A DNA stretch of 64,000 nt from a virus (taxonomy: Duplodnaviria; Caudoviricetes). The stretch is taken from IMG/VR virus record IMGVR_UViG_3300037400_001617, one strand, 5' to 3'. Under the pieces are notes generated by a model that saw only the letters and a program-made list of their open reading frames with translations, was not told the origin of the DNA and did no database searches. Position numbers and translations under genes: made by a program. Positions 2,365-63,837 of the stretch are shown in pieces; the stretch's first letter is position 1, and each line of letters starts with the position of its first letter.

Positions 2365-3962
2365 TATACTTCCTCCCCCATCGCTTTGTACTGAGCAAGT
2401 CTAGCATTGATATTGTACTCAGTCAATGCATCCTGCTGTTCGTCAGTAAGCTGACTTGCTAGATCCTTAGTAGGATCAAACAAAGGTTTACCATATATGT
2501 CCTTAATTACTCCGTTGTCATCTGGAGCTATAGGAGCTGTACCAACTATCGGTGGACACGGATCAGCATCTCTTATTGGTGCATTATAGTCAACTCTACA
2601 GTTGCCAGTTCTGAGCTTATCTAAGAAGGCTCTCTTTCGCATCTCATAGTTGACTTTAAGCTTATTAGTAAGATACTGTTCAACCTGAGGACCATTAAAC
2701 AGCTCAGGATGATTCTGATAGTCGTACGCCAGTTTTACATCCCTTCTATCGCCAAGCTGAGTTGGCAGAGTATTCATATCGAACCTTATATTCGGATCAA
2801 TACCACTCAGATAGAAGGAACGTGTGTATTCTTTTGGTGACATATAGCAACCCGCTTTCCAACGAGTCATATGTCTCTTATAATCCTTCAGATAATAGGT
2901 ATTGTAAACCCATTTCATATATGGATCATCAACGCCATTCGTCAGGATCGATTCGTACGATGTAGCAAGTGCTTCTGGCGGTGGTGCACATACTACATCA
3001 AAGATATATCGTGCCATCTGCTTTTCATATTCTGATCTACGACAATTGTCATAGAAGTGCAGACGGGACTGATATTCTGCAACGTCGTGAGACTTGCTAT
3101 ACACAATCTTATGAGTACCAGTCTCTGGGTCGTTTGGTTGTGTTAAGAGAATTTCATCTCCTTCTTCTGTAAGAACAGATACGCTGACTCCAGACTCTTC
3201 AACTCTCTGGAAGTTCTCATCATAAGTGTAATCCATAAACTTATGATCTGCTTCGTATCTCATCTGCTGAAGATCCTCTTGAGATGGGAACATACGTCTT
3301 AATGTTTCCTCAACCTGTTTTGTCCAATCTTCAACAGATACATTTTCTGGTCGGCCCCACATCATGGTTCCTCTCCAGTAGTTCTTCATAGTCTGCATTT
3401 GAGCTTCCTGAGCTTTTCTGATCTCTTCAGCCTGCTCATTGTTCATCTGCATTCCGCCAATACCCATACCCATGCCAAACATATTGTATCCCTGCTGAGC
3501 CTGAGAGATATAAGAACCTCCCAACGGATTATAAGTTGTGGCCGCAGCGTTTACTATTGGATTGGAATACGGCATGGATGTTGCTGTCTTCTGTGTCATA
3601 CTGCTCTGCTGTCTTGCTATGTTCTGCCAGTTTGAGGCAGTAGAATCGCTTGATACACAAGACATTCCTTCGCTTTCCTCTTCATTGTCGAACGAGAAGT
3701 TTGATTCATCATTCAACTCATTCAGACCATCTAAAGAGAAATCTACATCTTCTGTCGGCTTTGGTGAACCATACATCTCTTCTTCGATGTATGATTTGCT
3801 TGACTGTAGCAGTCTCGCTTTTCTTTCAGCTCTTCTCTTCTTTTCTTCATCTAACATAACTGAAGCTGTCGGTGGAGCTGACTTTTCTTTAAGTTTGTTT
3901 AATGTCACATTATCATTCCTTTCATGTATTTGTATGTCTGAATAGTAGTAAGGTTGTGCCAT
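2364..3962 (-). CDS. hypothetical protein with Q/M/G-rich low-complexity segment
   Basis: 532-aa ORF, 1-nt overlap with the downstream gene; TATATATTAT motif upstream (3998-4007, minus strand). Confidence 0.8.
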   Translation of the reverse strand: MAQPYYYSDIQIHERNDNVTLNKLKEKSAPPTASVMLDEEKKRRAERKARLLQSSKSYIEEEMYGSPKPTEDVDFSLDGLNELNDESNFSFDNEEESEGMSCVSSDSTASNWQNIARQQSSMTQKTATSMPYSNPIVNAAATTYNPLGGSYISQAQQGYNMFGMGMGIGGMQMNNEQAEEIRKAQEAQMQTMKNYWRGTMMWGRPENVSVEDWTKQVEETLRRMFPSQEDLQQMRYEADHKFMDYTYDENFQRVEESGVSVSVLTEEGDEILLTQPNDPETGTHKIVYSKSHDVAEYQSRLHFYDNCRRSEYEKQMARYIFDVVCAPPPEALATSYESILTNGVDDPYMKWVYNTYYLKDYKRHMTRWKAGCYMSPKEYTRSFYLSGIDPNIRFDMNTLPTQLGDRRDVKLAYDYQNHPELFNGPQVEQYLTNKLKVNYEMRKRAFLDKLRTGNCRVDYNAPIRDADPCPPIVGTAPIAPDDNGVIKDIYGKPLFDPTKDLASQLTDEQQDALTEYNINARLAQYKAMGEEV

Positions 3963-7570: not shown

Positions 7571-9664
7571 ATGCGAGTTAGAACCGCAGGTAAAACAATC
7601 GAACCAATGGCCTCTGAGGTGAAGATACCTCAGAGACTTTCAATAACACTTTTGGATATAATCTGTTCTTATATGATAACAGATAACAAAAACATTCGTC
7701 GTAAGGGATATACAAATATCCTCATGGCGATGAACACATTAGACCTTAGCATCTATACAGATGATGCATACTTATTACGTTTCGACTTCATTAAGACTGC
7801 TCTTAAGGCAAGAGTCGATAACGGCTTAACCAATCAGGCTCTCGTAATGGACTATATAGAAAACAATCTTGGAGATCTCTATAAGGAGATTGAACTTAGA
7901 GAGCTCAATAATAAAGAGATAGACTACATCAATCAGACAATCTCAAACATGCTTGACAATGTAGTCTTCGCACGTAATATAATGTCCTTTGAGTCTATAG
8001 CTCAGAGGTTTAAAGAAGCTAGTCCTAACCAGAAACCGTCTATAGTTAAAGAGTGGAAAGGACTTGTTGATGAAAGTAAGAATGCCATTCGTCAGCATCG
8101 TATAGAGAAGACTGACGAACAGATGTATTCACTGCAAGAGGGTGTATTCGAAGATTACGTAATGTACACTCACGCAGATTTATCTAGCCCGTGTAACAAA
8201 CTTGCCACAGGTATGATTGGATTCAATGTCCTTTTAGGGGGTGGATTCCAGTCTGATAGAATATATGGTATCTTTGGACTGCAGGGTGAAGGTAAGTCAT
8301 CAACTTTAGTTAACTTAGCATATCAGATCAAGATGTATAACAGAGGGTATAAGTGTAAAGACCCGACGAAGACACCTTGTGTAGTATATTTGACAATGGA
8401 AGATCATCCTAAGGAGACTCTGTCACGTCAGTTCTCGATGGTAACAGAACAGGGTAGTCTTATCGATCATGACGTTAATGAGTCAATTCAGCTTATGAGA
8501 CAGGGTGGTCTCGAGGTAACTCCAGATAACCCGATTGATATCATAGTCAAATATAAACCTAATGAGTCTGTAGACACATCATATATCTATGACTTAGTAG
8601 ACGATCTTGAAGAGATGGGATATGAAGTTATCTGCGTGATACTTGACTATCTCAACAGAATTCGTTCAGTCAATAAATTTAGTGCGTCCGAAGAAAGACT
8701 CAGACTTGGTGCTGTTGTAAATGAGCTTAAGACTATAGGAACAGAACTCCACATCCCAGTCATTACAGCAGCTCAGTTCAATAGAAGTGCTAATAAGAAT
8801 ATAGACGAAGCTAGAGAAAGCGGAACAGACGATCTTGTCAATCTTCTCGGAAGAGATAATATAGCTGAGTCTATGAAGATACTTGACAACCTCGATGCGG
8901 CATTCATGATAGTGCCAGAGTTCGATATCAATCATCATAAGTATCTCGGTATCAAGTTAGCAAAGAACAGATACCAGGTTGATTTAGAGTCTCCTCTTAT
9001 CAATACTAAGAAGAGATGTATTCATCATCCATACACAAACAACTTCTCTATGCGTCTTGCAGAAGATGTATTATCAGGAGTGCCAGTTCATAAGAAGACA
9101 CTCGTAGAGATGCAGATGTGTGATGAAGAAGGCATTGTAGTAGACGACAATGCTATCATTCCAGATAACAGCAATAGATTCAACTCTGCTGTTACAGAGT
9201 CTACAAAGAAGAATCTCCTCAAAGAAGCAGGTATCAAGGATACAAGTAAGACTACAGTAGTAGGTAATACTGTCGTACCTAATCTTGATAATATGACTGA
9301 GGAAGAGAAAACGAAGTACAAGAAGAAAACGTCAAAGAGTAAGAGTGCAACTAAGTGCACTCTCACACCTGATAGATATTCGTTCTTGTATACATTGACT
9401 CAAGACCCATTGGGATCTATCAATCAGAGATTTGTAGATGACTTCAACAAAGAGTTTAATACAAACTATGGTGTCGATATGTTCCCATACATAGCTAGTA
9501 CTAGAGAAATCAACCGTCTTAGAAAGGTGGAAGGTTCTCAGTATGAAGATATGAAATGCAAGAAGGGTGAACTATATACACCTCTCTTCAGGGTAGTAGA
9601 ACAGAGAAATCTGTTTGAGATATTGACTCCACAAGAGTATGCGGCTTCACGTTGCAGAAGCTGA
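7571..9664 (+). CDS. dnaB: DnaB-like replicative helicase
   Basis: Walker A GLQGEGKS, YLTMED, ILDYL, ITAAQFNR, KNR motifs. Confidence 0.9.
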   Translation: MRVRTAGKTIEPMASEVKIPQRLSITLLDIICSYMITDNKNIRRKGYTNILMAMNTLDLSIYTDDAYLLRFDFIKTALKARVDNGLTNQALVMDYIENNLGDLYKEIELRELNNKEIDYINQTISNMLDNVVFARNIMSFESIAQRFKEASPNQKPSIVKEWKGLVDESKNAIRQHRIEKTDEQMYSLQEGVFEDYVMYTHADLSSPCNKLATGMIGFNVLLGGGFQSDRIYGIFGLQGEGKSSTLVNLAYQIKMYNRGYKCKDPTKTPCVVYLTMEDHPKETLSRQFSMVTEQGSLIDHDVNESIQLMRQGGLEVTPDNPIDIIVKYKPNESVDTSYIYDLVDDLEEMGYEVICVILDYLNRIRSVNKFSASEERLRLGAVVNELKTIGTELHIPVITAAQFNRSANKNIDEARESGTDDLVNLLGRDNIAESMKILDNLDAAFMIVPEFDINHHKYLGIKLAKNRYQVDLESPLINTKKRCIHHPYTNNFSMRLAEDVLSGVPVHKKTLVEMQMCDEEGIVVDDNAIIPDNSNRFNSAVTESTKKNLLKEAGIKDTSKTTVVGNTVVPNLDNMTEEEKTKYKKKTSKSKSATKCTLTPDRYSFLYTLTQDPLGSINQRFVDDFNKEFNTNYGVDMFPYIASTREINRLRKVEGSQYEDMKCKKGELYTPLFRVVEQRNLFEILTPQEYAASRCRS

Positions 9665-10515: not shown

Positions 10516-11163
10516 ATGGCTATGCTTTATACACTTGATTATTCTCCATTTAAGAAGCTTACACCAAGTCAGTATAAAAAGGGTATACCGAGTCTGGACA
10601 GTTATACTGGTATAGAAGGACTGTTACAGTCGGTAAGACCAAAAGATCGTGAAGCTATCAGAACAGTACTCACATATGATCCATCGATCATATTCATGGA
10701 TATCATGTACTATGCTGGTATTGGAACCAGTAATGGTATCGTCGTAGATAATGATACTATGAGACCATTACCTTACAATGGAAACAAGCTCATGAGATAT
10801 CCTGCTGTTATCGGCGGATGCGGAAACATGAACATAGTCAACTTCGATCCTATCTTCAACCTTAAGATGATGGAGATAGTCTTCACTGTGTATATCACTA
10901 AGATATCTGCAGAGAGAAACATAAGCATCAAGTCATTCTATATATACGGACGTCAGAACCAACTTAAATCTGGTGAGTTGTGTTTAGACGACTATAAGGG
11001 AACTAAACTAGTTTCGGATCAATTCATGACTGATACTGTATGCTATATCAATCTGATGATGCAGATTGAGGGTGTAGACAGAGAAACAGCATACAATCAG
11101 TGTGCGGCTCTTGACAACTACATCGTTTGCTCAAAGAAGATGAAAGGACGTCATTATGAATGA
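10516..11163 (+). CDS. hypothetical protein
   Basis: 215 aa, AAGGAGG SD. Confidence 0.8.
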   Translation: MAMLYTLDYSPFKKLTPSQYKKGIPSLDSYTGIEGLLQSVRPKDREAIRTVLTYDPSIIFMDIMYYAGIGTSNGIVVDNDTMRPLPYNGNKLMRYPAVIGGCGNMNIVNFDPIFNLKMMEIVFTVYITKISAERNISIKSFYIYGRQNQLKSGELCLDDYKGTKLVSDQFMTDTVCYINLMMQIEGVDRETAYNQCAALDNYIVCSKKMKGRHYE

Positions 11164-12546: not shown

Positions 12547-12630
12547 TAAGTTGTCTTAAAACAACTTTTGGCTACATATCATACCTTTGAGTCAAGAACA
12601 ATACTAAGACTCAGAAAGGAAATCGAAACA

Positions 12631-13347
12631 ATGAGCGATAACATTGTAAACCCCTTTGGTATTGTGAATCCTGTATCTGGTGAAGTAACCGAACAGGAAG
12701 TTAATCCTACCAAAGAGGATCTCAAACTTATCAAAGAAAAGGAAAAGAGACTGGCAGAAGAGGCTAAGAAGAACCTCAAGACAGTCAAAGTTGCAGATGG
12801 TACAGCAACAACTAAGAGACCTGCTAAGAATAAGAGAGCTCCACAGGCTCCAGTAGTAGCAGGTAAACCACAACAGCAGAATGTTCCTCAGAAGCCTAAG
12901 CAGATACAGTCTGTAAAAGAGTATCTTGTGTGCTTTGTATTTGAGGGACAGGATATGACTGAACCAGACTGGACACGTTCCAGATGGATAACTGCAGAAG
13001 GAAGAGGTTTATGCTTTGCTAAGACAGTAAGCATGATTCATGATATAACCTCTGAAAATGAAGACTTCTATGATCCTATCGATTATGAGGAGTCATTCGT
13101 GTTATGCACGGGAGTCAAGTATGAAGAGAAGGTTCCGCTCCTTCAGTTCATCAGACTCTGCATCGAGAAAGAAGCCAAAGCAATAGACAAGTATATGCTT
13201 GACTATATGCAGGCAGTCCTCAAGTCATACGAAACTGGTTCGTTTGAACCTATTGACGAATGGGTCAAGGTTAACAATGATACACCTTGTACTCCACAGG
13301 TTCAGCAGACCATGTATACATCACTTGAGGGTGAAGATATAAACTAA
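12631..13347 (+). CDS. hypothetical protein
   Basis: start moved to ATG 12631 after GAAAGGA; MSDNIVNPFGIVNP... Confidence 0.8.
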   Translation: MSDNIVNPFGIVNPVSGEVTEQEVNPTKEDLKLIKEKEKRLAEEAKKNLKTVKVADGTATTKRPAKNKRAPQAPVVAGKPQQQNVPQKPKQIQSVKEYLVCFVFEGQDMTEPDWTRSRWITAEGRGLCFAKTVSMIHDITSENEDFYDPIDYEESFVLCTGVKYEEKVPLLQFIRLCIEKEAKAIDKYMLDYMQAVLKSYETGSFEPIDEWVKVNNDTPCTPQVQQTMYTSLEGEDIN

Positions 13348-22291: not shown

Positions 22292-22888
22292 ATGAATAAC
22301 AGAATTCCTAAGATACCAAAGATGAAGATAGAAGATCTTCTCGAAAAGCTCAAAGAAGAATTCAGAATAGGACATTGGGATCCGAAGGAGGAAGAGTTTA
22401 CTCCAAGAGGTGCATTCAACATGCACTCTATATACAGAACTCTCTCCCCACAGAAGTTTGAAGCTTACAAATGTGGACTCAACTACGACTACACAGAGTA
22501 TCTGGCTTGGTATTTCACTACATACTTCAATTCAACATTCTTTGAACTGTACTACATAGAGTTCAGCGATGGCTTCAATTACACATTCCTTATCTATCAG
22601 GATCAGTACGGATATCATCTTGTCATTCCAGATGGCTATCTTCCAGTGTATGGAGTCATCGACAAAGGAACAGAAGATGAGTGTGTACAATTCATAGTCA
22701 ATGTGATAAGTAGCTATAGAATGTGTAAAACAGAATGGATCGTCTTCAAGTATCTGCCTACTGGAATATATGGGTGTACTATAAAACAGTTCATGGATGA
22801 TAAGTGGGTATGGAGATGGTACTACAAGTCATCATGTAGACAGGATCAAGTTCAATTCTTATTCAAGAGAGTCAATACCGTCCTATAG
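22292..22888 (+). CDS. hypothetical protein
   Basis: 198 aa, AAGGAGG SD, aromatic-rich. Confidence 0.75.
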   Translation: MNNRIPKIPKMKIEDLLEKLKEEFRIGHWDPKEEEFTPRGAFNMHSIYRTLSPQKFEAYKCGLNYDYTEYLAWYFTTYFNSTFFELYYIEFSDGFNYTFLIYQDQYGYHLVIPDGYLPVYGVIDKGTEDECVQFIVNVISSYRMCKTEWIVFKYLPTGIYGCTIKQFMDDKWVWRWYYKSSCRQDQVQFLFKRVNTVL

Positions 22889-24739: not shown

Positions 24740-25552
24740 TTAATCCCACGGAGAACGGAACAATGGTACATATACAGGTTGCTGTGCAGGCGCTTGTGAA
24801 GGTATACCAGCATAGTTATCGTTACCATCTCTTAAAAACGACAGACGCTGTTTAAGCAGTTCCCGAGTAGCCCCAAGCTGGTCGACTTGAGAGTTGTCTC
24901 CCATATCGATAGCAATGTATTTCTTTTCAAGTATCTGCATGTAGTCATTGTATATCTGATCTTGTGCAAGCTTCTCAATCATTTTCAGTTTGTCGAGAAG
25001 TTCAGTATCGATATAGTCATGATATTGCTGAACGAATGCATTGTAATATCCGTATACCCTGTTCGCAGGAACATAGATATACTGATTATGAACAAGCTCA
25101 TGAACAGTCTCTGATAATGGGATAAGTCCTACCATTAAGCAGTAGTGTACATAGAGTACTTCATATGCTACTGCTTCTATAGTAAGAAGCTCTCCAAGAG
25201 CCATTCTCTTTCTGATGATTATACTACAGATCTCATAGAGTGTCATAGGAGAGTGGTGAATCTCTATCCTTATCTTAGGAGTAAACTCGTTCGATACGTT
25301 AGGCAGAAATGCACAGTTTCTCATATCCATATACTCCCTGAGATACTGTACCATGTTCTTGTATTCGAGTGATTGTCTGACAAATCTCTCGAGATCTTTT
25401 ATGTATTTAGTCATATCCTTCTCATCAAACATATCGTAGTCTTGAACACCGTACTCGGGTATGTCGTTCGGAATTGCAATTATATCGATATCGTTAGGAG
25501 TGAAGGTATCAAGAGGATTAGTAGTATCCACTTCTTTGTTATTGTAATCCAT
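24740..25552 (-). CDS. putative HNH-like/His-metal protein
   Basis: CAF...IEIHHSP...PLSETVHELVH; start moved to ATG 25552 after AAAGGAGG. Confidence 0.5.
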   Translation of the reverse strand: MDYNNKEVDTTNPLDTFTPNDIDIIAIPNDIPEYGVQDYDMFDEKDMTKYIKDLERFVRQSLEYKNMVQYLREYMDMRNCAFLPNVSNEFTPKIRIEIHHSPMTLYEICSIIIRKRMALGELLTIEAVAYEVLYVHYCLMVGLIPLSETVHELVHNQYIYVPANRVYGYYNAFVQQYHDYIDTELLDKLKMIEKLAQDQIYNDYMQILEKKYIAIDMGDNSQVDQLGATRELLKQRLSFLRDGNDNYAGIPSQAPAQQPVYVPLFRSPWD

Positions 25553-25635
25553 ACAAATGCCTCCTTTCAGGTATTTATCATGATGTTTCGACAAAAAAAA
25601 GAAACCTGGGCAGTACGCTCAGGTTCCTCTTAAAA

Positions 25636-26952: not shown

Positions 26953-27119
26953 AATAGGGATTACCTCCTTTGAGTGATATTGTTACTAAGATGTTTAAGA
27001 AGAACCCCTCATATGTGTTTTATATCAACATCTATAAACTGACCCGTTTGGGAGGATTATAGAATACAGTTTTAAAAAAGCAGAACATATTAGTAATCTC
27101 CTTGAAAGGAGTTGGTGAC

Positions 27120-27317
27120 TTGAACAAGTCAAAGACACATTACGAGAAGGGAAGTTTCTTAGATCATCTCGCTTCAATGACACCAAACGAGATCAATGAC
27201 TTCCTTAGGACTAATGGTAAAAGTAAACCAGTCAACCCATTTATAAGAATCGATCCTAGAGATAGGTTCGATCAAACTACATCCAAACAGGAGGACAAAG
27301 ACTATGGCAACCAATAA
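27120..27317 (+). CDS. small hypothetical protein
   Basis: TTG start after GAAAGGAG; AACA-N6-TA at 27084-27095. Confidence 0.65.
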   Translation: MNKSKTHYEKGSFLDHLASMTPNEINDFLRTNGKSKPVNPFIRIDPRDRFDQTTSKQEDKDYGNQ

Positions 27318-37795: not shown

Positions 37796-39136
37796 ATGCT
37801 TAGATCATTCACATTCGGTTGTGGTCAGGGTGCTACAAAGGCAATGATTACGGCCATTGACAATGGTGTACTTGATAAGGGTAGATGTGTAGTAGTTAAC
37901 TCTACGATCAAAGATGTCCCTTCAGAGTACAGACCTACTGCTATCATCATCTCAGACGATCCTGACGCAGGTTGTGGTAAAGTAAGAGACGCAGCGCGTG
38001 CGTTGATGAATGACTTTATCAAGGTTAACCCAAACTATCTCGAGGAACTTATCCCCGAAGATACAGACTATGTAAATATTATCACCACTTCAGAAGGTGC
38101 TTCTGGTAGTGGTTCTTCTGTAGTACTTGCTCAGTACATCAGTAACTCTATTCAGCTTCCTGTTATCATTACACTGATCACAGGCTTCGAGTCTGATGTA
38201 AGAGGTCTTCAGAACACTATCAACTACTTCAGAGACCTTAAGGGTGCTAACTGCGGAATCATCACTGTATCAAACAGACGTTTCCTCAATGAAGCTAACG
38301 GCAATATCTTCGTTGCAGAGAAGCTTGCTAATGAGGATATCTCTAAAACACTCTCTATCGTCGGAGCTCAGGGTCTTATAGACTGCGAGCAGAACATCGA
38401 TGATACAGATCACTACAAGATTATCACCAATCCTGGTGTAGTCTTCGCTGGTGAAGTTGAAGTGTCAGACCGTATCAAGAATGCCGAACAGTTCAACAAG
38501 CTTGTTGGCGATATGATCGACAATACTACTTCACTTGACTTCGAGCCTTCTGCTACTAAGGTAGGTATCTACATGAACATACCTGAGGAGACTATAGAAG
38601 TACTCGATACTTCATTCTCTATCATCAAGAAGAAGCTCTGCTGGAATGGCTTCCAGGAGTTCTTCATCCACAGACAGTATAATCCTAAGCAGAAGAGTTT
38701 CATCAGAGTCATTGCTTCGGGTATCAACATGCCTAAGGCTGAACTGATGAGCATGTACGACAAGTTCGAGAAGTCTACCAACCAGATGAACGCTGCAGAG
38801 GATGACTTCTTCGATACTCTTGGTAAACTTGAGACTAATGCACAGCTGGAGAAGAAGGTTGAAAGAGATGATTCATTTCTTGACTCCTTCGCAACAGCTT
38901 CTAGCGATGAAGCTAGCGCAGTCTTATCGAGAAATAAGAGGAAGTCGGGTGTTAAGCTCGGCACATCAAAGCACTCGGCACCTGAGAAAGTTTCAGACAC
39001 AACTGATAAGGTTGCTGATGAAGAAGTGAAAAAGAATCCTCTTACTACCAACGGTAAGACTCAGATAAATCCCAAACACTCTATGGGTACTAACAAGCAT
39101 CTCACAGAGTTCTCGGAAGAGGGAATCAACAAGTAA
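37796..39136 (+). CDS. phuZ: PhuZ/TubZ-like tubulin-FtsZ family protein
   Basis: FGCGQGATKA, VVVNS, AGCGK, EGASGSG (variant of GGGTG[ST]G), NIDDTD (T7-loop-like), long charged tail. Confidence 0.85.
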   Translation: MLRSFTFGCGQGATKAMITAIDNGVLDKGRCVVVNSTIKDVPSEYRPTAIIISDDPDAGCGKVRDAARALMNDFIKVNPNYLEELIPEDTDYVNIITTSEGASGSGSSVVLAQYISNSIQLPVIITLITGFESDVRGLQNTINYFRDLKGANCGIITVSNRRFLNEANGNIFVAEKLANEDISKTLSIVGAQGLIDCEQNIDDTDHYKIITNPGVVFAGEVEVSDRIKNAEQFNKLVGDMIDNTTSLDFEPSATKVGIYMNIPEETIEVLDTSFSIIKKKLCWNGFQEFFIHRQYNPKQKSFIRVIASGINMPKAELMSMYDKFEKSTNQMNAAEDDFFDTLGKLETNAQLEKKVERDDSFLDSFATASSDEASAVLSRNKRKSGVKLGTSKHSAPEKVSDTTDKVADEEVKKNPLTTNGKTQINPKHSMGTNKHLTEFSEEGINK

Positions 39137-40602: not shown

Positions 40603-42834
40603 ATGAAAATCGAACAGAACCCAAAACTTGACCAAGCATTTGCTGAAGTCTATGCGTCTAATCGTCCGATAGATCAGATGCTTGGTAGATCAGGACTCCA
40701 GATATGTGAGTCCCTGAATTCATCTTCAAGAAAGATAATGCATTCCAACCAGAAGAAACAAGCTAAGTGTCCGAAGGAACCAGAGGTTCCTCTTGCTGGT
40801 ACTGGAATAGAGAACCGTTATGGACACAAATCATCGGCATTCTTACAGTCTAATGAAGCACAGACTGTAATAGCCAAGATAAGTAGATACTCTATGTACC
40901 CAGACCATGAGTACTATCTTATCCTTAAGAACGAACACAACGAGCTCAATATGGTGACTCGTAAAGTTTGTCAGCACAACACCGAGACATTCGGTTTCCT
41001 TTGGAACAATGATTACATCGATTCTCTTCAGGAGGATGATGTCATTCCTAAAGGAACAGTGTATAAGAAAAGCACCAGTTTCGATGAGTACAATAACTAC
41101 AAAGCTGGTGTAAATGCGCTTGCTACTTATGCAAGCCTTCCTCAGACTACAGAAGACCCTGTTATCATAAGACAGGGATTCCGTAAGAAACTCAGCTCTC
41201 CAGAGTTTAAGAGTATAACCGTTAAGTTAAACGACAACGATGTATTCTTAAATCTGTATGGAGACGAAAACGTCTATAAGGCTTTCCCAGATCTCGGTGA
41301 AGAGACTAAGAACGGTATACTCTGTTCTATAAGAAAAGCCAATTCAGACAACTCAGCGTTTACCTTATCTAGAGACTCACTCAGAAATATAACTATCTCT
41401 GATGAGACTATAGTTCCCAAAGAAGGTAAAGTCATAGACATAAAAGTCTATTCTAACAAGCAGATAGCCCCAGGACGTGAGGATGGAGAACTCTACAACG
41501 TCTTTGAGGGTCAGCTTAGAATGTACGTTGATGAAGAGAACCGTTTCGCTAGACAGTTTGTCGAAGCTATGGCTAACTACATCAACAACAAGGACTACAA
41601 GGTATCTTATGAGCTGGAAGAGATGTACTATAACTGTCAGGGTAGACTTGAAGGAAAGCAGTTTATCGAAGATGGTAAGATCACCAGCAATATAGTTATA
41701 GAGTTCCTTGTATACTGCGATCACAATATATCTATAGGTGATAAGCTTGCTAACCGTAATGGAGGTAAAGGCGTTATCGCTGATATATGGCCAGATGAAA
41801 TGATGCCAAAACTTCCAGATGGAACACCTATCGACATTATATGGGATGAGAGTACTTGTGTAAACCGACTCAATATAGCTCAGCTCTCAGAACTGTCTAT
41901 CAATCGTATTGGTAGAGGAATCCTCGACTATATCAACTTGGGTGTACTTGATACTGCACAGATATGTGGAATACTCACAGACTTCTATAGAGAGCTTTCA
42001 CCAGATCTTGCAGACTTCTTCCAGAAGACTCTTGAGTGTTGTGAGACTGATCAGGAACTTATTACGCTCGTAGAGTCATTCTTATATCCTACTGAAGGGC
42101 CTAGAGGAATCTATACTTCCCTTCTTCCTATCAGTGAGTGCGTAGACTTCGATAAGATCAGAAAGATCTATGAGAAGTTCTCATATATCAAGCAGGAATA
42201 TCTTCAGGTACCTATACAGAACTCAGATGGTACTTATCGTTATACATGGTCTAATAAACCATCTACGGTAGGTGAACAGTTCATATACATCCTCAAGCAG
42301 GAAGCTGAAGAGAAACACTCTGCTACTTCTGCATCTTCGACTAATATCAAGGATGAGAACAGCAAGAGTAAAGAGTCTAAGGAGTACAGATGTGCTATCA
42401 CTAAGACTCCAGTTAAGTGGGGAGAGATGGAGACAATGATCTTCCTCCACTGTAGCTCAGAGACTGTAGTAGTCAACGCTATGCTGATGTCTCTGTCTCC
42501 TAGAGCACGTAGAAGTGTCATGGACATGCTTCTCGGAGATCCGTATCATATCGATATCCATATCGACATGGATGCTCGTAACAGATCTGCAGAAAAGGTA
42601 CAGGCTATTATGAAGGGTATGGGACTTAGACTAAAGTTTAAGAAGATACCTATAGTCAAAAAGCCAGTATTCGAGATGGCAGAACAGAAGATGCTCTTCG
42701 AAATAGTTCCGCAGAAGATGCTTTTTGAGCAGATACCTCAGAAGATGCTCTTCGAACCTATGGAGATGAAACCTCTGTTCGAGCCAGTAAAGCAGGAATT
42801 ACTTTTCAAACCACTTTGGTTATGCAAAGACTAA
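40603..42834 (+). CDS. RNA polymerase beta subunit, C-terminal part (probably non-virion RNAP)
   Basis: SSRKIMHSNQ, TEDPVII, GDKLANRNGGKGV, PIDII...NRLN, KWGEME. Confidence 0.9.
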   Translation: MKIEQNPKLDQAFAEVYASNRPIDQMLGRSGLQICESLNSSSRKIMHSNQKKQAKCPKEPEVPLAGTGIENRYGHKSSAFLQSNEAQTVIAKISRYSMYPDHEYYLILKNEHNELNMVTRKVCQHNTETFGFLWNNDYIDSLQEDDVIPKGTVYKKSTSFDEYNNYKAGVNALATYASLPQTTEDPVIIRQGFRKKLSSPEFKSITVKLNDNDVFLNLYGDENVYKAFPDLGEETKNGILCSIRKANSDNSAFTLSRDSLRNITISDETIVPKEGKVIDIKVYSNKQIAPGREDGELYNVFEGQLRMYVDEENRFARQFVEAMANYINNKDYKVSYELEEMYYNCQGRLEGKQFIEDGKITSNIVIEFLVYCDHNISIGDKLANRNGGKGVIADIWPDEMMPKLPDGTPIDIIWDESTCVNRLNIAQLSELSINRIGRGILDYINLGVLDTAQICGILTDFYRELSPDLADFFQKTLECCETDQELITLVESFLYPTEGPRGIYTSLLPISECVDFDKIRKIYEKFSYIKQEYLQVPIQNSDGTYRYTWSNKPSTVGEQFIYILKQEAEEKHSATSASSTNIKDENSKSKESKEYRCAITKTPVKWGEMETMIFLHCSSETVVVNAMLMSLSPRARRSVMDMLLGDPYHIDIHIDMDARNRSAEKVQAIMKGMGLRLKFKKIPIVKKPVFEMAEQKMLFEIVPQKMLFEQIPQKMLFEPMEMKPLFEPVKQELLFKPLWLCKD
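42658..42819 (+). repeat. six 27-bp (9-aa) tandem units at the RNAP beta C-terminus
   Basis: KKPVFEMAE/QKMLFEIVP/QKMLFEQIP/QKMLFEPME/MKPLFEPVK/QELLFKPLW; CAGAAGATGCT recurs at 42685, 42712 and 42739. Confidence 0.9.
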
Positions 42835-42905: not shown

Positions 42906-43082
42906 ATGACACAGATCGTAGATAGTATAATGCTTATAGTGCTCTTCTGTTTAGCAATTGCTATAATGATCGCAATGTTAGTATGCTTTGCGAAGATCGC
43001 TATAGTACCAATCGATGATGAAGATGAAGAATGGGATGATGAAACCCCAGATTCTCTTCAGGCTGAAAGGAGTGGAAACTAA
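42906..43082 (+). CDS. small single-pass membrane protein
   Basis: AAAGGAGG SD; hydrophobic stretch then acidic tail. Confidence 0.7.
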   Translation: MTQIVDSIMLIVLFCLAIAIMIAMLVCFAKIAIVPIDDEDEEWDDETPDSLQAERSGN

Positions 43083-45388
43083 TGTACAAAAAGATCATTC
43101 AGCATCTTCTCAATGGAGATGCCTCAGATCTTGTTCCTGAAACAATCAGGAACATCAACTCACATGTGGTGAGGTTTCTTAATCGAACCAATCTTGATCC
43201 ACAGGAAGTTGAAATAGTGGGTGATATATTGCATATCAGCAATATCATCTACAACAACACGGATAGGAGTATCCTTGTACTTGAAGACGGAGTATATGAT
43301 AATCTGCTTCAGATGTACAAGAGGTACAATCCTAATTATCAGGTTGGAGGAGAACCTGTACATTTTGCTCCTGTTGGAGAGACTGTCGTTAAAGAGACTC
43401 CACAACAGAGACCAGTACAACTCTTCCAAGAGATGCACTACGATAAAGATATGCTCTTCAGAAAAGATATAGCGTCTAACAACACATATCGAAGAGCAGA
43501 CTTTGGTGGAGAAGACGTTAAAGCATCAAAACGACTCCGCAATACTGCACACAACTATCCACAGCTCGTGGGTACTCTTGATAAGGCTAAGTTTACGCTC
43601 AATCAGGAGGCAGTAGAAAGAAATGCTTGGAACAATCCAAACGTTGTAATCTTCGAAAGAGATTTCCTCGCTAAACACATCCAGGAGGGTATAGTTGATC
43701 CTAACAATATATCCCTTGTTTGTGAGCTCAAGTATGATGGAATCTCAGTGGAAGCAGATGTAACCGATGAGGTTGTGTCTGCAAGAACTAGAGGAGACAC
43801 TGGAATGGATAAGGCTACAGACCTTACTTCAGTCTTCCAGGGTTATCCGTTCATGGAAGCAAAAGAATATGCTAAAAAGGTAGGTCCTATAAAGCAGTTT
43901 GGTATGAAGTTTGAAGCTATAGTAGACAACTTTGCTTTACAGGAACTTGATAGAAAGCATAATATAAGATATGTGAGCTCTCGTAATGCAGTAATCGGTC
44001 TCACTAGTAGAGCTGATGCACGTATGTATGCTCATTATATCACTCTCGTCCCTCTTCAGACAAGTCTTGAGAATATGAATAGGGTAGAAGAGATTGCGTT
44101 TATGAACAAGTTCTATGCTAACGGCATCTACTTAAGTCATGCTGTTATACATGGAAATTATCAATCCGTTTTGTATCAGGTATATAAGTTCGTTCAGGAA
44201 GCAGAACAGATGAGAGACTATATCCCATTCAAGTATGATGGTATAGTTGTCTCTTATATAGATCCTGTAATAAGAACTGCACTTGGTAGAAAGAACTTTG
44301 TCAATCAGTTCTCCATAGCTATCAAGTTCAATACTATGAAGAAACTTACCCAGTTCATCGGTTATGACTATACTGTTGGTAAGGACGGAACAATAACTCC
44401 GATGATAAACTACAATCCAGTAGAATTCTTCGGAGGTATAAACACGAAGTCTTCTGGACACTCATGGAAACGTTTCTTCGAGCTTGGTCTTCGTAAAGGA
44501 GATTGGCTCCAGGCTGAGTTCAGGAACGATGTCATGGTCTATATAGAGAAGGCTAACGTGGAAGAGAATCAGTACAATCCTATGCCAATGGAACAGTTCC
44601 CCAGTAATTGCCCGTGTTGTGGTACGAAGTTGGTGTTCAGCGATAAGAATGCCAAGTGTATCAACTTAGCGTGTCCTGGAAGGGTTTTAGCTAGAGTAAC
44701 AGACATGCTCGCTAAGCTAGGTTTTAAGGGATTCGCCGAGGAGAGTGTTAAGAAGCTTGAACTCAAAGGATTTGATGACCTCGTAAACGGAATGTCAGAG
44801 GAGAGAATTATCAAAGCTCTCGGTAAAGCAGATGGTCAGGACTTTATGGAACAACTCTCTAAGTTCCTGACAGATCCACAGTTCGACTATATAGTACTTG
44901 GAAGCCTCGGCTTCTCATCTATAGCCTCAACAAAGTGGAAAGGAATACTCCAAAAGGTTTCATTGGATGAGCTCATAAATCTTGACAATATGACCTTATC
45001 CACTATAATGCAATCGAAGCCTAACAAGATAGGTACAAAGACGATTCAGACTGTCCTCGAAGAGAGGCCAATCTTTATCAATGATTTGATAGCAATCAAG
45101 AATCTCAGGAATCTTGTATCTATCAAAGATAACAAGAACGGAACAACTTCTAAGATAATCAGATTCAGTGGATGTAGAGACGTTCAACTCATGATGGCTC
45201 TCAACAAGCTGGGGCATGATTGTTCAGAAGGATCTGTTACAAAGAACACAAACATTCTCTTAGTCCCATATATGGGATTCAACAGCACCAAAGTTGCATC
45301 TGCTTCAAAGTATAACAGCAATGGTGCTTTCATTCGCATACTGCCTATAGAAGAATTCAGAAAGAACCCAAACGCGTTCCTTCAGTAA
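43082..45388 (+). CDS. ligA: NAD-dependent DNA ligase
   Basis: ELKYDG adenylation motif, RTRGD, YDGIVV, IAIKF, CPCC...C....C Zn finger, BRCT-like C-terminus. Confidence 0.92.
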   Translation: MYKKIIQHLLNGDASDLVPETIRNINSHVVRFLNRTNLDPQEVEIVGDILHISNIIYNNTDRSILVLEDGVYDNLLQMYKRYNPNYQVGGEPVHFAPVGETVVKETPQQRPVQLFQEMHYDKDMLFRKDIASNNTYRRADFGGEDVKASKRLRNTAHNYPQLVGTLDKAKFTLNQEAVERNAWNNPNVVIFERDFLAKHIQEGIVDPNNISLVCELKYDGISVEADVTDEVVSARTRGDTGMDKATDLTSVFQGYPFMEAKEYAKKVGPIKQFGMKFEAIVDNFALQELDRKHNIRYVSSRNAVIGLTSRADARMYAHYITLVPLQTSLENMNRVEEIAFMNKFYANGIYLSHAVIHGNYQSVLYQVYKFVQEAEQMRDYIPFKYDGIVVSYIDPVIRTALGRKNFVNQFSIAIKFNTMKKLTQFIGYDYTVGKDGTITPMINYNPVEFFGGINTKSSGHSWKRFFELGLRKGDWLQAEFRNDVMVYIEKANVEENQYNPMPMEQFPSNCPCCGTKLVFSDKNAKCINLACPGRVLARVTDMLAKLGFKGFAEESVKKLELKGFDDLVNGMSEERIIKALGKADGQDFMEQLSKFLTDPQFDYIVLGSLGFSSIASTKWKGILQKVSLDELINLDNMTLSTIMQSKPNKIGTKTIQTVLEERPIFINDLIAIKNLRNLVSIKDNKNGTTSKIIRFSGCRDVQLMMALNKLGHDCSEGSVTKNTNILLVPYMGFNSTKVASASKYNSNGAFIRILPIEEFRKNPNAFLQ

Positions 45389-45488
45389 GAAAATATAGGC
45401 TGTTAAACATGATTATAAGCATATACTATGCTTATGTACGGGACGACGAGTCCTGTAATATTATAAACTTTTCAAGGAGGTTTTCACT

Positions 45489-46250
45489 ATGAAAACAATG
45501 GAACTCAGAGACACTAATATGCCACAGCTTTTCAGAAGCTCACTCATCAGCGAGCTTACTGGCAGTGGCACAAATGGAAATGCAATTCACTTCGTAATCA
45601 GTGACACAACTAATGAAAAGGATCAGCGCAATGACAGCGTATATCCTTTCACTGCAGTCATAGCAGCTTGTGCTCGTATCATGAGTGCAGATGCTATGAA
45701 GAGCAAAGACCACAAGACCGCACTCGTATTCTCCGATCCTAAGGGCGCAGGAAGCATGCTTATGGCTTGCATTTCTGAGTGGATCCCTGAAGGAGACGAC
45801 GGAAACTACAATTTCTACTTCTCCTTCGACCCTGAAGACATCAAGGGTATTCCTGAGGACGCAATCAAGCCGTTCTATGATATCCAGGCTATAATGCCTT
45901 GGGGTCCTACTCTGAGGGATGTACTTACTAACGTACATTGCCGCAGAATCGACGACCTTGAGATTCTCAACGGAATCACAATCCTGGTCGTAAAGACTAT
46001 CTGCAACTGGCTCGATTCAAACGCCAACGAGTCAGAAACAGTCAATGTCGAATTCAAAGACAGTACTGTATATGATGCAGAGCTCACGGCAGAAGGCGCA
46101 CCTAACCCGATCGACTTCGAGACATACAAGTCACACTGGGTAACTTATGCTACCGCTACAGTATCTGTAGAGCGCGGCATCAAGAAGAAGACCATGACCT
46201 TCGGCGAAGAGATGAAGGCTATCGCTAAGGGAAATGCAGATCTCACTTGA
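45489..46250 (+). CDS. hypothetical protein
   Basis: 253 aa, AAGGAGG SD, CATATACTAT motif upstream. Confidence 0.8.
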   Translation: MKTMELRDTNMPQLFRSSLISELTGSGTNGNAIHFVISDTTNEKDQRNDSVYPFTAVIAACARIMSADAMKSKDHKTALVFSDPKGAGSMLMACISEWIPEGDDGNYNFYFSFDPEDIKGIPEDAIKPFYDIQAIMPWGPTLRDVLTNVHCRRIDDLEILNGITILVVKTICNWLDSNANESETVNVEFKDSTVYDAELTAEGAPNPIDFETYKSHWVTYATATVSVERGIKKKTMTFGEEMKAIAKGNADLT

Positions 46251-46323
46251 TTGTCGAGGTTAGCTAATCATAGTAATCGGGGAGTTCGCTCCCCGATTAT
46301 TTTTAAGAGGAGGAGAGTATAAG

Positions 46324-47010
46324 ATGTTACACCCAATAAACCAGGCTTACGTAAACGGCGTCAGAGTCGATGTCGTAAGTCCATCAGAATACTTCTACAA
46401 CCAAGAGTTGTACGATCCGAAAACGACGTGCATCATGATGGAGAATGTGGATTATATTCTCCCAATTCGTACGTCTAATGTTGACCTTAACGTTCCTGGT
46501 TTCTATGTAACGCCAGGAGTCTATGGTCCTGGAGCTAGTCCGTTCATTCCTATAGTACCTCCAACTAAGAATGAAATGGAAACGTACTCCACAAAAAACA
46601 TTGTAGATTTCTCCAACGTGTCATCAATGTCTGAATATCTCGCCGCTAATGCAGAGCTGGTTGAACAGGAGAGAAAAGCCTTCCTGTCGGATCAGCCAGA
46701 TGATGTGGTGAGACTAATCATAGATGAGGTGTCCGATACACCTCTGATGATATTATGCAAAAGCATTATCAATAGCAAGTTTGTTACCTCGAAGTTCCTC
46801 GAGAATAGAATGGGTAACAACTACAACAACAACATGCGTCTGCTGAAGAATAAGAACGATATCTCCTACAACAAAGCAGTTGAGATACTCAACTGTATCG
46901 ATGTAAAGATAACGGCTACGGCAGACAATGCAATCAGCTCGGCTGTATATCCAATGCAGTCTCCTATCACATACGATCTCAACTCAGGTATAAATGGGGG
47001 GTGTTTCTGA
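46324..47010 (+). CDS. hypothetical protein
   Basis: 228 aa, coupled to the RNAP beta-N gene. Confidence 0.8.
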   Translation: MLHPINQAYVNGVRVDVVSPSEYFYNQELYDPKTTCIMMENVDYILPIRTSNVDLNVPGFYVTPGVYGPGASPFIPIVPPTKNEMETYSTKNIVDFSNVSSMSEYLAANAELVEQERKAFLSDQPDDVVRLIIDEVSDTPLMILCKSIINSKFVTSKFLENRMGNNYNNNMRLLKNKNDISYNKAVEILNCIDVKITATADNAISSAVYPMQSPITYDLNSGINGGCF

Positions 47011-49060: not shown

Positions 49061-49468
49061 ATGGAAACAGAACCTTTATTCAAAGTGATCAACATCGGCG
49101 AGTGTCCATGTTGCGGACAGGATGGTAAGATAACTGTCAAGTTCCGCAATACAGAATACGTGACACTCAATAAGAATGGAAGAGTAACCAAATGGTCTGA
49201 TGTTCAGAACCATATTGGAACTGCTTTCTGTGGTACATGTATGCAAAGGTTTGGTGCTATCAACTTGAGCGATCTTGTTGGAATACCTGGGCTGGTACGT
49301 GTAGTACCGCTCGAGCATGTTAAAGATATCGCTTTGAGTTACCTCAAAGTCTATGCTAAGGATGAGTTTGAAGCTGCTGGAGAGAATCCATTAGTTTGTA
49401 AAACAATGACCGAAGCAGAGGATGCCGAGGAAGCTAGACAGCATATGGTAGACGTATCATATTTCTAA
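49061..49468 (+). CDS. Zn-ribbon protein
   Basis: CPCCG...CGTC; begins METEPLFK. Confidence 0.7.
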   Translation: METEPLFKVINIGECPCCGQDGKITVKFRNTEYVTLNKNGRVTKWSDVQNHIGTAFCGTCMQRFGAINLSDLVGIPGLVRVVPLEHVKDIALSYLKVYAKDEFEAAGENPLVCKTMTEAEDAEEARQHMVDVSYF

Positions 49469-52235: not shown

Positions 52236-52943
52236 ATGAACGACACAAACAACATCGACTTCAACCGTATGATCTCTTTCAAAAAGAGAATAGGACGTCC
52301 AAGCGACTCAACAGACTTCTTCGAAGATGAGCCTGGTCAGGAAACAGAACAGGTATCTGTAGAAGTAATAGAGGAAGAAGATCCTCTCAAAAGAAAAATG
52401 ATTGAATGTCAGGTAGACTTTCGTAAGTACTACTCAGACATGAAGCGTGAAAGAGATAAGGCTAACGTTGTAGTAGCCAGAGCTTTTCTCACAAACTCTA
52501 TACTGACATCGAACATGATGAAACAGAACAACGTATATCTGCCTACTGGCGAAAACTTCTCGTCTGGTATAAGGGTATGCGACAATGAGTATGTCGCTGT
52601 TACTAATGGCGGCACTCCAGTCAGTCAGATTCTCGACAACACAAACTCTGTCCCAGTTACTAATCTTCAGGACTATGCAAACATCATCAATTGCTACAAC
52701 GAGAAGGATCCTGATTCAGACTATATAACTAAGCAGGAAGCGGCTTCTATAGCTACTAACTATATCACATTTCGTGATCAGTCTCTTCTCGATAGCGTAG
52801 TTAAGAATGGATGCATGGATCGTCTCATAGGTAAAGACACTATCAAGAAGATCAAGTGTACGGAAATAAACGATCCTATGATAATCACTTCACCTACAAT
52901 AAGAGCAAACTCGAAGATTCAGCAGGACAATGATGAGGATTGA
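52236..52943 (+). CDS. hypothetical protein (paralog of the preceding gene's C-terminal domain)
   Basis: shares NSVPVTNLQDYANI and EAASI.TNYI..RDQ.LL. Confidence 0.8.
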   Translation: MNDTNNIDFNRMISFKKRIGRPSDSTDFFEDEPGQETEQVSVEVIEEEDPLKRKMIECQVDFRKYYSDMKRERDKANVVVARAFLTNSILTSNMMKQNNVYLPTGENFSSGIRVCDNEYVAVTNGGTPVSQILDNTNSVPVTNLQDYANIINCYNEKDPDSDYITKQEAASIATNYITFRDQSLLDSVVKNGCMDRLIGKDTIKKIKCTEINDPMIITSPTIRANSKIQQDNDED

Positions 52944-53905: not shown

Positions 53906-54139
53906 ATGACAGAACCACTCTTCAAAATGGCTGGACCTAAGTACTGTTCAAGATGCGGAACAGACGGAATAGCAATCATAGTAGTAAATACTCGTAAAGG
54001 TAAAGAAGCTCGGTGTATGCGGTGTAAGAACTGTGGTGCTGAGTTCATGATAGATTGGAGAAATCCTAAAGTTCCTAGACCTCTGTCAATGGGGTTGTAT
54101 GCTAATATATGTCTAAGAGGTTTGAATGCTTATGTATAA
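53906..54139 (+). CDS. small Zn-ribbon protein
   Basis: CSRCG...CKNCG; begins MTEPLFK. Confidence 0.75.
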   Translation: MTEPLFKMAGPKYCSRCGTDGIAIIVVNTRKGKEARCMRCKNCGAEFMIDWRNPKVPRPLSMGLYANICLRGLNAYV

Positions 54140-57794: not shown

Positions 57795-57817
57795 CTAAAT
57801 TGGAAAGGAGAGTTCAT

Positions 57818-63371: not shown

Positions 63372-63452
63372 ATGATATACATCGAGTATGATGAAGTGGG
63401 ATTCACTCCATACTATATAGTTAACGACAGAGTGGATTACTATACACTCTGA
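63372..63452 (+). CDS. possible 26-aa peptide
   Basis: AAGGAGG SD; MIYIEYDEVGFTPYYIVNDRVDYYTL; overlaps the 3' end of the convergent gene. Confidence 0.4.
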   Translation: MIYIEYDEVGFTPYYIVNDRVDYYTL

Positions 63453-63837
63453 TAAAGGGATTGTAGTATGCTGATGTAAAGGTATTATTACGATACTCTT
63501 CCACTCGCATAGTCTCAGTATCTACTCTTCTTCTAAGAGTTTCCCTATTGCCGCTATACCAGTGTTCCGTAGTGATACCTGTATTAATATTACCATTGAT
63601 CTTATATATAAGATCGCCATACTGATCGTATTGATAGTGACTAAACTCACCGTTAGACTTATAGAATGCAATCTTTCTATACTGATCATCATAAGTGTAC
63701 TTATACTCTATAGGAATCGGCTTGTTGTTCTCGTCTCTTTCGTATACTATGTAGCTAAGCTTGTTGCCATGGTTATCTCGCTTTACATAGTAAGGTTCTC
63801 CAAGACGTGGATTCCTGGGTGGTTTGTTATAGTTCAT
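63421..63837 (-). CDS. YD/RHS-repeat-like small protein
   Basis: RDNHGN, YKYTYDDQ, YQYDQYGD repeats. Confidence 0.6.
   Translation of the reverse strand: MNYNKPPRNPRLGEPYYVKRDNHGNKLSYIVYERDENNKPIPIEYKYTYDDQYRKIAFYKSNGEFSHYQYDQYGDLIYKINGNINTGITTEHWYSGNRETLRRRVDTETMRVEEYRNNTFTSAYYNPFIRVYSNPLCR

Follow-up and report, generated by a model that had tools for sequence, protein, structure and literature searches.

The 64,000-nucleotide stretch of viral DNA analyzed here (Duplodnaviria; Caudoviricetes; IMG/VR record IMGVR_UViG_3300037400_001617), referred to below as the window, raises the question of why a subunit of a multisubunit RNA polymerase (RNAP) ends in six tandem copies of a short peptide and why the same kind of peptide recurs on unrelated proteins. 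The open reading frame (ORF) in question, at positions 40603 to 42834, aligns over residues 41 to 675 with chain C of the solved non-virion RNAP (nvRNAP) of phage AR9 (PDB 7S00; E = 2.5e-68), and it also matches PHROG 3295, "RNA polymerase beta subunit" (E = 1e-89), and the Pfam domain RNA_pol_Rpb2_6. Its best tblastn matches are those of PBS1/AR9, at approximately 30% identity, and the AR9 gene, g089, is annotated as the C-terminal half of the nvRNAP beta subunit. The window and AR9 share the gene order around this gene, with a UvsX-like recombinase upstream and an NAD ligase downstream. Homology and gene order assign the ORF as the ortholog of AR9 gp089, the nvRNAP beta C-half, which has hundreds of metagenomic homologs. 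The window DNA has zero nucleotide matches among cultured phages, and among IMG/VR contigs it has 85%-identical relatives approximately 230 kb in length. Sister phage G001, whose complete genome (231,846 bp) is 85% identical to the window, and three complete or near-complete IMG/VR genomes of a distant lineage with an RNAP homolog of 37% identity, G003 (258,973 bp), G004, and G005, are used below for comparison.

The tail starts past the end of the alignment to the AR9 enzyme and consists of the units KKPVFEMAE, QKMLFEIVP, QKMLFEQIP, QKMLFEPME, MKPLFEPVK, and QELLFKPLW, exactly as described in the original prediction, which had been made from the sequence without database searches. AR9 gp089 ends about 20 residues past the common core and has no repeat tail. 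The codons of the L/F pair vary among the units (CTC TTC, CTT TTT, CTG TTC, and GTA TTC), and this synonymous variation indicates that the repeat is kept as a protein feature, as opposed to being a recent duplication of the DNA; Tandem Repeats Finder recognizes 2.6 copies of a 27-nucleotide unit in the tail, with 76% identity. In six relatives, whose tails are 44 to 82% identical, the F of every unit is invariant, the preceding L is invariant in most units, and the residues after F vary (IV, II, VM, IM, VL, QI, QV, and QL at F+2 to F+4), a pattern of evolution that, as judged from the alignments, is purifying selection on a peptide feature. The prediction had proposed a check for equivalent tails in related phages, and these are present in homologs down to approximately 42% identity, which carry three to six short repeats in the last 70 residues at a spacing of 9 to 11. 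The repeats begin after the conserved ...MGLRLxFKK... end of the homologs, and the repeat type differs by lineage, comprising QKMLFE, PLFKPV, NPFKRI, PLFTRV, SPFVRV, xLFYFLD/xLFVPV, NNLFxHPSIMD, and RPxVFIPD. The motif core is [P/L]-F-x-x-[V/I/L], often with N/S/T-P in front, and its density in the whole homolog set averages 0.73 per 70 amino acids (aa) in tails versus 0.17 in bodies. Other distant RNAP tails have SPVKRLRRDVV in two to three copies, PGLIF/PGIIE/PGILF, or P[IV]xxxP[IV] pairs around an acidic spacer.

The lineage-specific variants of the RNAP tails also appear on other proteins. The C-termini of DnaB homologs show the same variants as the RNAP tails in pairs matched by sample or assembly. 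For example, in sample ERR12543393, the RNAP tail has NPFKRI/QPFKRI five times and the DnaB C-terminus has NPFKRI and QPFTRI, and in sample SRR17023456, PLFTRV/DLFTRV in the RNAP tail is accompanied by PIFRRV and PLFTRV on DnaB. Among the long-form DnaB homologs, 72 of 75 have at least one core motif in the last 45 residues, at about 27 times the density of the rest. The covariation of the ligase and Zn-ribbon proteins was judged in the lineages where those genes were available. In the SPFVRV lineage, the Zn-ribbon proteins start with MNSPFVRI and MDNSPFEL (SPFVRI and SPFELC), the ligase linker contains SPFERV, and a 196-aa protein carries SPFVRV at its N-terminus. The longest DNA word common to the DnaB and RNAP tails is 8 nucleotides, and the matching variants are accordingly a product of selective convergence, not of gene conversion. 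As a negative control, the PLF/LLF sites in the folded C-terminal domain of GyrA keep their own residues in G003 and do not become MC, the core that replaces LF and PF in that genome. The covariation across orthologous client proteins gives strong support, at the level of sequence comparison, to a shared, coevolving docking motif for one partner and is regarded here as the decisive evidence for it. The N-terminus of the UvsX-like recombinase, MLLTEMFRNAV, was considered as a BRC-like self-motif and rejected, being unchanged in the NPFKRI lineage and not tracking the clients.

The distant lineage, in which the RNAP and DnaB of each pair come from the same record, extends this concerted change to a different core. 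G003 has NVMAKIV and KVMCKKV in the RNAP tail and KVMCTIV at the DnaB C-terminus; G004 has LVMCKTV and LVMCKEV in the RNAP tail and KQMCRIV on DnaB; and G005 has the same two RNAP repeats as G004, with two MC copies at the DnaB C-terminus. The consensus of the G003 tag is [KR]-[KE]-x-M-C-x-I-V. Within 45 residues of an end, MC..[IV] occurs in 14 G003 proteins versus 1.7 expected (0 of 300 shuffles), and an unbiased scan of the 400 possible dipeptide cores puts MC first (Bonferroni 2e-4). In G003, a terminal excess of the LF/PF class is absent, and an interior-density test shows depletion of this class (3 versus 10.8). Client orthology between G001 and G003 was mapped by BLASTP, and by synteny for the Zn-ribbon proteins (Table 1), and in one ortholog pair, of 575 and 521 aa, the tag has been relocated to the other end of the protein. 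The G003 ortholog of the PHROG 12252 protein (44% identity) ends with NKIMCVIVKD, which is the variant of that lineage. A polymerase-like protein of 598 to 603 aa (PHROG 2943) has KKEMCRIV at residue 545 in G003 (172172-173983); in the window lineage, this protein (window gene 47001-48797) is without a recognizable copy, and the adjacent 228-aa protein has an internal one.

The tag lies outside domains, has few fixed positions, is independent of position, occurs on many unrelated proteins that belong to a single functional class, and coevolves as a set, and it is a short linear motif in these respects. All of the other instances listed in the original prediction, on DnaB, ligase, the PHROG 12252 protein, the 532-aa protein, and the two Zn-ribbon proteins, are present as written. 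The sites on the 259-, 215-, 71-, 138-, 198-, and 228-aa proteins go beyond that list and were picked by eye.

Table 1. Positions of the nvRNAP gene, its tail, and motif copies in the window, with the corresponding tags in the sister genome G001 and the distant genome G003
Protein (gene)	Position	Strand	Feature in the window	G001	G003
nvRNAP beta C-half	40603..42834	+	743 aa; AR9 gp089 ortholog		
nvRNAP beta C-half, C-terminal tail	42658..42819	+	six tandem 9-aa units, each with (L/V)F; residues 686-739 of 743		
DnaB-like helicase (7571-9664)	9575..9628	+	residues 669-686; two copies, F residues 9 apart	C-terminal tag	C-terminal tag
NAD-ligase (43082-45388)	43409..43435	+	variable linker, residues 110-118; PVQLFQEM, one copy	linker, residue ~114	linker KVMCVAV, residue ~116
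NAD-ligase, second site	43445..43465	+	residues 122-128; KDMLFRK, uncertain member		
284-aa protein, PHROG 12252 (24740-25594)	24743..24772	-	extreme C-terminus; YVPLFRSPWD	C-terminal tag	C-terminal tag
532-aa protein (2364-3962)	2472..2492	-	residues 491-497; GKPLFDP		
Zn-ribbon protein (49061-49468)	49067..49087	+	N-terminal; TEPLFKV		
Zn-ribbon protein (53906-54139)	53909..53929	+	N-terminal; TEPLFKM		
Zn-ribbon proteins				EPLFK...	MIEMVNIV, EMCRIV
259-aa protein (12568-13347)	12646..12666	+	N-terminal; VNPFGIV		
215-aa protein (10516-11163)	10540..10560	+	N-terminal; YSPFKKL		
71-aa protein (27102-27317)	27231..27251	+	VNPFIRI		
138-aa protein (63421-63837)	63445..63465	-	C-terminal; YNPFIRV		
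198-aa protein (22292-22888)	22853..22873	+	C-terminal; QFLFKRV	kept	
228-aa protein (46324-47010)	46537..46557	+	internal; SPFIPIV		
B-family polymerase exonuclease half (split polymerase)				SPFVPKW	two MC copies
SF2 helicase (AR9 gp156 ortholog)				NPFIMGY	VMCTTV
nvRNAP beta' C-half (AR9 gp154 ortholog)				KPLFEII	IEMVKIV
575/521-aa protein				C-terminal tag	N-terminal tag

Several of these sites can be followed in individual relatives. The ligase linker is a poorly conserved region, and the site in it reads SPFERV in L020, SPFTKV in L021, and PVPLFQVI in L001 at the aligned position; the AR9 ligase is without the N-terminal extension that holds the tagged linker. At the second ligase site, M124 and F126 stay invariant in four lineages whose motif variants differ, which suggests a possible structural role in the fold. 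The counterparts of the Zn-ribbon proteins, identified by synteny, start with MDNSPFEL in L020 and MIEMVNIV in G003 for gene 49061-49468 and with MNSPFVRI in L020 and MKMELKEMCRIV in G003 for gene 53906-54139; the latter gene and its G003 counterpart each lie directly upstream of an SbcC-like gene. For the 532-aa protein, the support is weaker, with EPVF near the C-terminus of a syntenic 610-aa gene product in L026, and no ortholog was found in G003. The N-terminal site of the 259-aa protein corresponds by synteny to SPFRRI in L024 and SPFVRV in L026, and that of the 215-aa protein corresponds to TPFKKM in L024, SPIKKV in L025, and SPFKKV in L026. The NPFIRI of the 71-aa protein recurs unchanged in its syntenic counterpart in L019 (66 aa), and G001 has NPFVRV at the site of the 138-aa protein. 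The internal site of the 228-aa protein reads SPFVPVV in the SPFVRV lineage and lies within a coil segment of a confident model, and it may be a docking site as well.

One rival explanation is that the tail is a slippage-derived low-complexity repeat and that the other sites are chance matches to a loose pattern. In the window, 1,000 per-protein shuffles, with patterns that were chosen after seeing the data, gave 18 matches to [PMNLQ]LF[EKRQD] versus 4.2 expected, 13 versus 4.1 without the RNAP tail, and 7 versus 0.58 for PLF[EKRQD], and the overall enrichment of the pattern named in the original prediction is three- to fourfold. In G001 the excess is at the termini only: the pattern occurs within 45 residues of an end in 12 proteins versus 3.8 expected (0 of 500 shuffles), compared with 12 versus 11.2 in protein interiors. 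The pattern is nevertheless a post hoc one, LF followed by a hydrophobic residue is common, and unbiased scans of G001 are not significant, all of which would be expected under coincidence. Coincidence is hardly credible, however, given that RNAP, DnaB, ligase, and the Zn-ribbon proteins switch variant in concert in at least five lineages, that the MC signal from the unbiased scan of G003 is significant after Bonferroni correction, and that the codons at the invariant L and F vary synonymously.

The tail is interpreted here, with moderate confidence, as a multivalent docking array for a putative phage-encoded, DNA-associated platform that gathers the replisome and the nvRNAP. Each motif copy would insert two hydrophobic anchors into a pocket of a common receptor, with a core made of a hydrophobic residue or Pro, F, two variable residues, and V/I/L; in other lineages, F is replaced, for example, by C after M. 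The receptor would collect the replisome, the late RNAP, and accessory factors at replicating phage DNA, like a sliding-clamp or single-stranded DNA-binding protein (SSB) "toolbelt," and the copy number would set the avidity, with six copies on RNAP and two per DnaB protomer. Such a receptor would coevolve with the motif and hence would most likely be phage encoded, as the coevolution of a dozen clients implies one receptor changing with them, which is easier to reconcile with a partner encoded by the phage than with a conserved host protein. The clients (DNA polymerase, two helicases, ligase, nuclease-like proteins, RNAP subunits, and small DNA-binding proteins) resemble a clamp- or SSB-type client set, and by the same analogy, coupling of transcription to replication via the tag is plausible. 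The central inference of the original prediction, a short docking motif by which DNA-acting proteins of unrelated families bind one hub, is strongly supported, chiefly by the concerted change across orthologous clients, which could not be seen from the window sequence, and the receptor itself is still putative.

The prediction had also linked the motif to the beta-clamp pentapeptide, and as a general property this link is not supported, since Q is rare, F and a hydrophobic residue at F+3 are conserved, and the relatives have NPFKRI, SPFVRV, or KKxMCxIV, none of which looks like a clamp-binding motif. A direct form of that idea is that the tag binds the host beta sliding clamp (DnaN), with QKMLF and QRNLF mimicking QL[SD]LF and bringing phage enzymes to the clamps of the host. 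Q-x-x-L-F does occur in four units of the RNAP tail and in one of DnaB, clamp clients typically carry their motif at the termini, and three Pfam clamp models (PF02916, PF00712, and PF00705) had zero matches in G001 and G002, a weak negative, as a divergent phage clamp may be encoded elsewhere. However, Q-x-x-L-F is present in just five copies in the window, most clients have xxPLF or xNPF, and the conserved hydrophobic F+3 is not part of the clamp motif. The pocket of the beta clamp is highly conserved among bacteria, and the variants at the same positions in the relatives do not fit it; moreover, the proteome-wide concerted switching points to a fast-evolving receptor. Binding to the host clamp is, on this evidence, quite improbable.

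The matched changes would also be expected without any separate hub if the tags bound one another as beta-strand or amphipathic "stickers," which must match and hence would covary. Many variants are rich in beta-formers (PFVFVE, LFVYVP, VMCKTV, and RVFIPD), and a network could readily form through the multivalent RNAP and the hexameric DnaB, but single-copy clients could merely cap such a network, and the charged and proline-containing flanks disfavor extended zippers. We consider self-association of this kind improbable. Degrons and targeting peptides, too, are typically terminal and independent of position, and a prohead protease (Peptidase_S77) is encoded nearby, so that the tag could be a signal for a processing machine, i.e., a degron for timed proteolysis or a capsid-packaging signal. 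A degron, however, needs no six tandem copies, neither replication enzymes nor a non-virion RNAP would be expected as cargo, and the virion RNAP beta candidate (57800-63118) has zero matches to both patterns scanned, in the window and in its G001 ortholog, which makes a processing signal very unlikely.

Another explanation is that the tag, similar to a nuclear localization signal (NLS), addresses DNA-acting proteins to a tubulin-positioned replication compartment or condensate, where a scaffold or a machine for import or partition would recognize it. The clients (polymerases, helicases, ligase, RNAP, and Zn-ribbon and helix-turn-helix proteins) are of the kinds that such a compartment should contain, the tag is found at either terminus and has switched ends in one ortholog pair, a conserved tubulin homolog is encoded two genes upstream of the nvRNAP gene, and import selectivity is species specific in related nucleus-forming phages (PMC11087766). 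Against it, phiKZ cargo is recognized by a surface patch, and no linear motif common to the nuclear proteins was found (PMC11087766). Searches with phiKZ chimallin (gp54) and PicA (gp69) found nothing at E <= 10 in G001, G002, and G003, a weak negative from insensitive single-sequence searches, and several DNA enzymes are untagged, as described below. AR9/PBS1, the closest cultured relatives, are not known to form a nucleus. An address tag is, in sum, unlikely. A fuller version, in which the tag is a transferable linear address, the first NLS-like phage peptide, that directs proteins to a tubulin-positioned compartment or condensate without a recognizable chimallin and is rewritten between lineages to exclude co-infecting relatives and host proteins, is likewise unlikely. 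The tubulin/PhuZ-like gene (37796-39136, +), separated from the nvRNAP gene by the recombinase gene, is kept at the same position in all lineages examined, and the extreme C-terminus of its product, TEFSEEGINK, is conserved between lineages.

The docking-array interpretation calls for a receptor, and candidates were sought among the proteins of the complete genomes. A bacterial-type SSB model and a DnaG-type primase Zn ribbon had zero matches in complete G001 and G003. The RNase H protein, at 278 aa (225 aa in G003), is too short to hold a clamp domain of about 300 aa. Between the ligase and polymerase modules, a 253-aa protein (45489-46250, +) is modeled with a predicted local distance difference test (pLDDT) score of 86 as two tandem HU/IHF-like halves, and its best architectural match is single-chain IHF (2iif; VIA Z 5.7), with unrelated entries scoring higher (Z 6.5 to 8.1). 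The fold search gave no clamp for this protein, which was rejected as a clamp; from the model, it is possibly a phage "chromatin" protein and a hub candidate. It is highly conserved and has an invariant C-terminal FGEE.K..AKGN. Co-folding of the RNAP tail with the 253-aa HU-like protein and with the UvsX-like recombinase gave a score of 0.00, which, the partner's own fold being uncertain, speaks neither for nor against binding.

The 228-aa protein was likewise rejected as a clamp, with no clamp among its fold matches. Its model is confident (pLDDT 92), and the fold matches are weak (E >= 0.5), several of them being XRE-type helix-turn-helix regulators. At its stop, the gene shares 10 nucleotides with the start of the polymerase-like gene (598 aa), an overlap that suggests translational coupling of the two genes, and the protein, for which the representative library contains 208 homologs, is a candidate accessory subunit of the polymerase. 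The 253-, 228-, and 80-aa proteins had zero tblastn matches in cultured phages, and the candidates for the hub could therefore not be ranked by whether AR9 has them. G001 and G003 have 86 proteins in common, and too many remain after the clients and virion proteins are removed to single one out. Pfam and PHROG searches with 20 further conserved G001-G003 proteins, which include the polymerase halves, the SF2 helicase, RusA, a GroEL-like protein, and virion proteins, gave no hub candidate. The GroEL-like chaperonin (Cpn60_TCP1, PHROG 5725) and the RusA-like resolvase are encoded at 44789-46519 and 194223-194963 in G001, and both are kept in G003.

Several observations weigh against the docking array. 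The receptor search found none in two complete genomes, although these are weak negatives. RNAP homologs below approximately 40% identity carry other repeat types. The motif is degenerate in the window's own lineage, and the statistics of the window alone are suggestive but not compelling: in G001 scans of all 400 XY..[VIL] cores and of all tripeptides, LF and PF are not top ranked, with a count of just 22 versus 12 (P = 0.006) for the class [NST]PF|P[LV]F. The top words of an unbiased terminal k-mer scan of G001 are KGG and ERR, which are probably an artefact of the ORF caller extending N-termini through ribosome-binding sites. In addition, chance or structure could account for some instances, namely, the second ligase site, the 532-aa site, and the N-terminus of the 253-aa protein, whose P-x-x-F is constant across lineages and is probably structural. 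Finally, the UvsX-like recombinase, the gyrase subunits, and the SbcC-like protein carry no tag, which would be unexpected for a universal address signal and tolerable for a clamp-type toolbelt.

The closest known systems are clamp toolbelts, such as the beta clamp with QL[SD]LF, PCNA with the PCNA-interacting protein (PIP) box, and the tails of T4/RB69 gp43, gp55, and gp33 on gp45, in which terminal or linker hydrophobic peptides of 5 to 8 residues likewise dock unrelated polymerase, ligase, helicase, and transcription proteins on one hub, which is putative here. In T4, clamp-binding tails couple late transcription to replication, and the tags at the termini of the nvRNAP beta and beta' C-halves and of the exonuclease half of the B-family polymerase in G001 and G003 are likewise hydrophobic. 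In contrast to clamp toolbelts, F and F+3 are conserved here without an obligatory Q or an aromatic pair. The aromatic pair of the PIP box (Q-x-x-[LIM]-x-x-[FY]-[FY]) is absent, with IV, QI, PM, PV, PL, and IL at positions 7 and 8 of the tail units. A clamp was undetected here, tandem arrays of up to six copies are present on core subunits of a multisubunit RNAP, and the motif is replaced wholesale between related phages (LF, PF, and MC). The C-terminal tip of SSB (D-D-D-I-P-F) is also a Pro-Phe-containing peptide that serves as a handle for many DNA enzymes, but it is on the hub and at a free C-terminus, whereas the tag described here is on the clients, usually has conserved residues after it, and is also found at N-termini. 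The DnaB of AR9 (g007, L055:3583-5268) ends with ...DSGIPF, resembling the SSB tip DDDIPF, and from this resemblance it may have a docking tail of another type.

In the nucleus-forming Chimalliviridae, the RNase H protein Rhc contains a domain derived from a clamp that serves as a polymerase subunit, binding the polymerase and supporting late transcription as well, and the related chimalliviruses have a split B-family polymerase, DnaB, and nvRNAP with no recognizable clamp or primase (PMC13648698). Rhc is therefore the kind of hub that could be a candidate, differing in that the RNase H protein here is too short for the clamp domain; the word "motif" is absent from the text of that paper (PMC13648698). 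The PicA-dependent import of phiKZ recognizes a folded surface region, with no motif found in common among nuclear proteins (PMC11087766), and it resembles the present case in the selective, species-specific gathering of replication and transcription proteins in tubulin-encoding jumbo phages. AR9/PBS1 have the orthologous catalytic subunit in the same gene neighborhood, AR9 gp089 is without the tail, and the AR9 orthologs of the other clients show no common terminal motif; the system seems, from the sequences compared, to be confined to an uncultured clade. Literature searches aimed at earlier accounts of such a motif in jumbo phages found none. A hub with peptide tags is of a known kind, and the new elements are a multisubunit phage RNAP bearing a tandem array, a clamp-less replisome with so broad a set of clients, and the wholesale rewriting of the tag. 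The C-termini of an 854-aa protein (49488-52052, +) and a 235-aa protein (52236-52943, +) of the window share a different motif (LMITTSPTVMRY and PMIITSPTIRAN), which is possibly another such tag.

The phiKZ/AR9-type jumbo phages have a split polymerase and DnaB and no recognizable clamp, clamp loader, or primase, and how their replisome holds together and is coordinated with RNAP is an open question (PMC13648698). A tag on the polymerase, helicases, ligase, and RNAP subunits offers a direct handle on the cohesion of such a clamp-less replisome, and its rewriting as LF, PF, or MC would be a natural example of a whole interaction network coevolving with one receptor. Should the receptor prove to be an import machine or a compartment, this tag would be a linear localization signal, the first known in phages, and a tool to send cargo to phage DNA.

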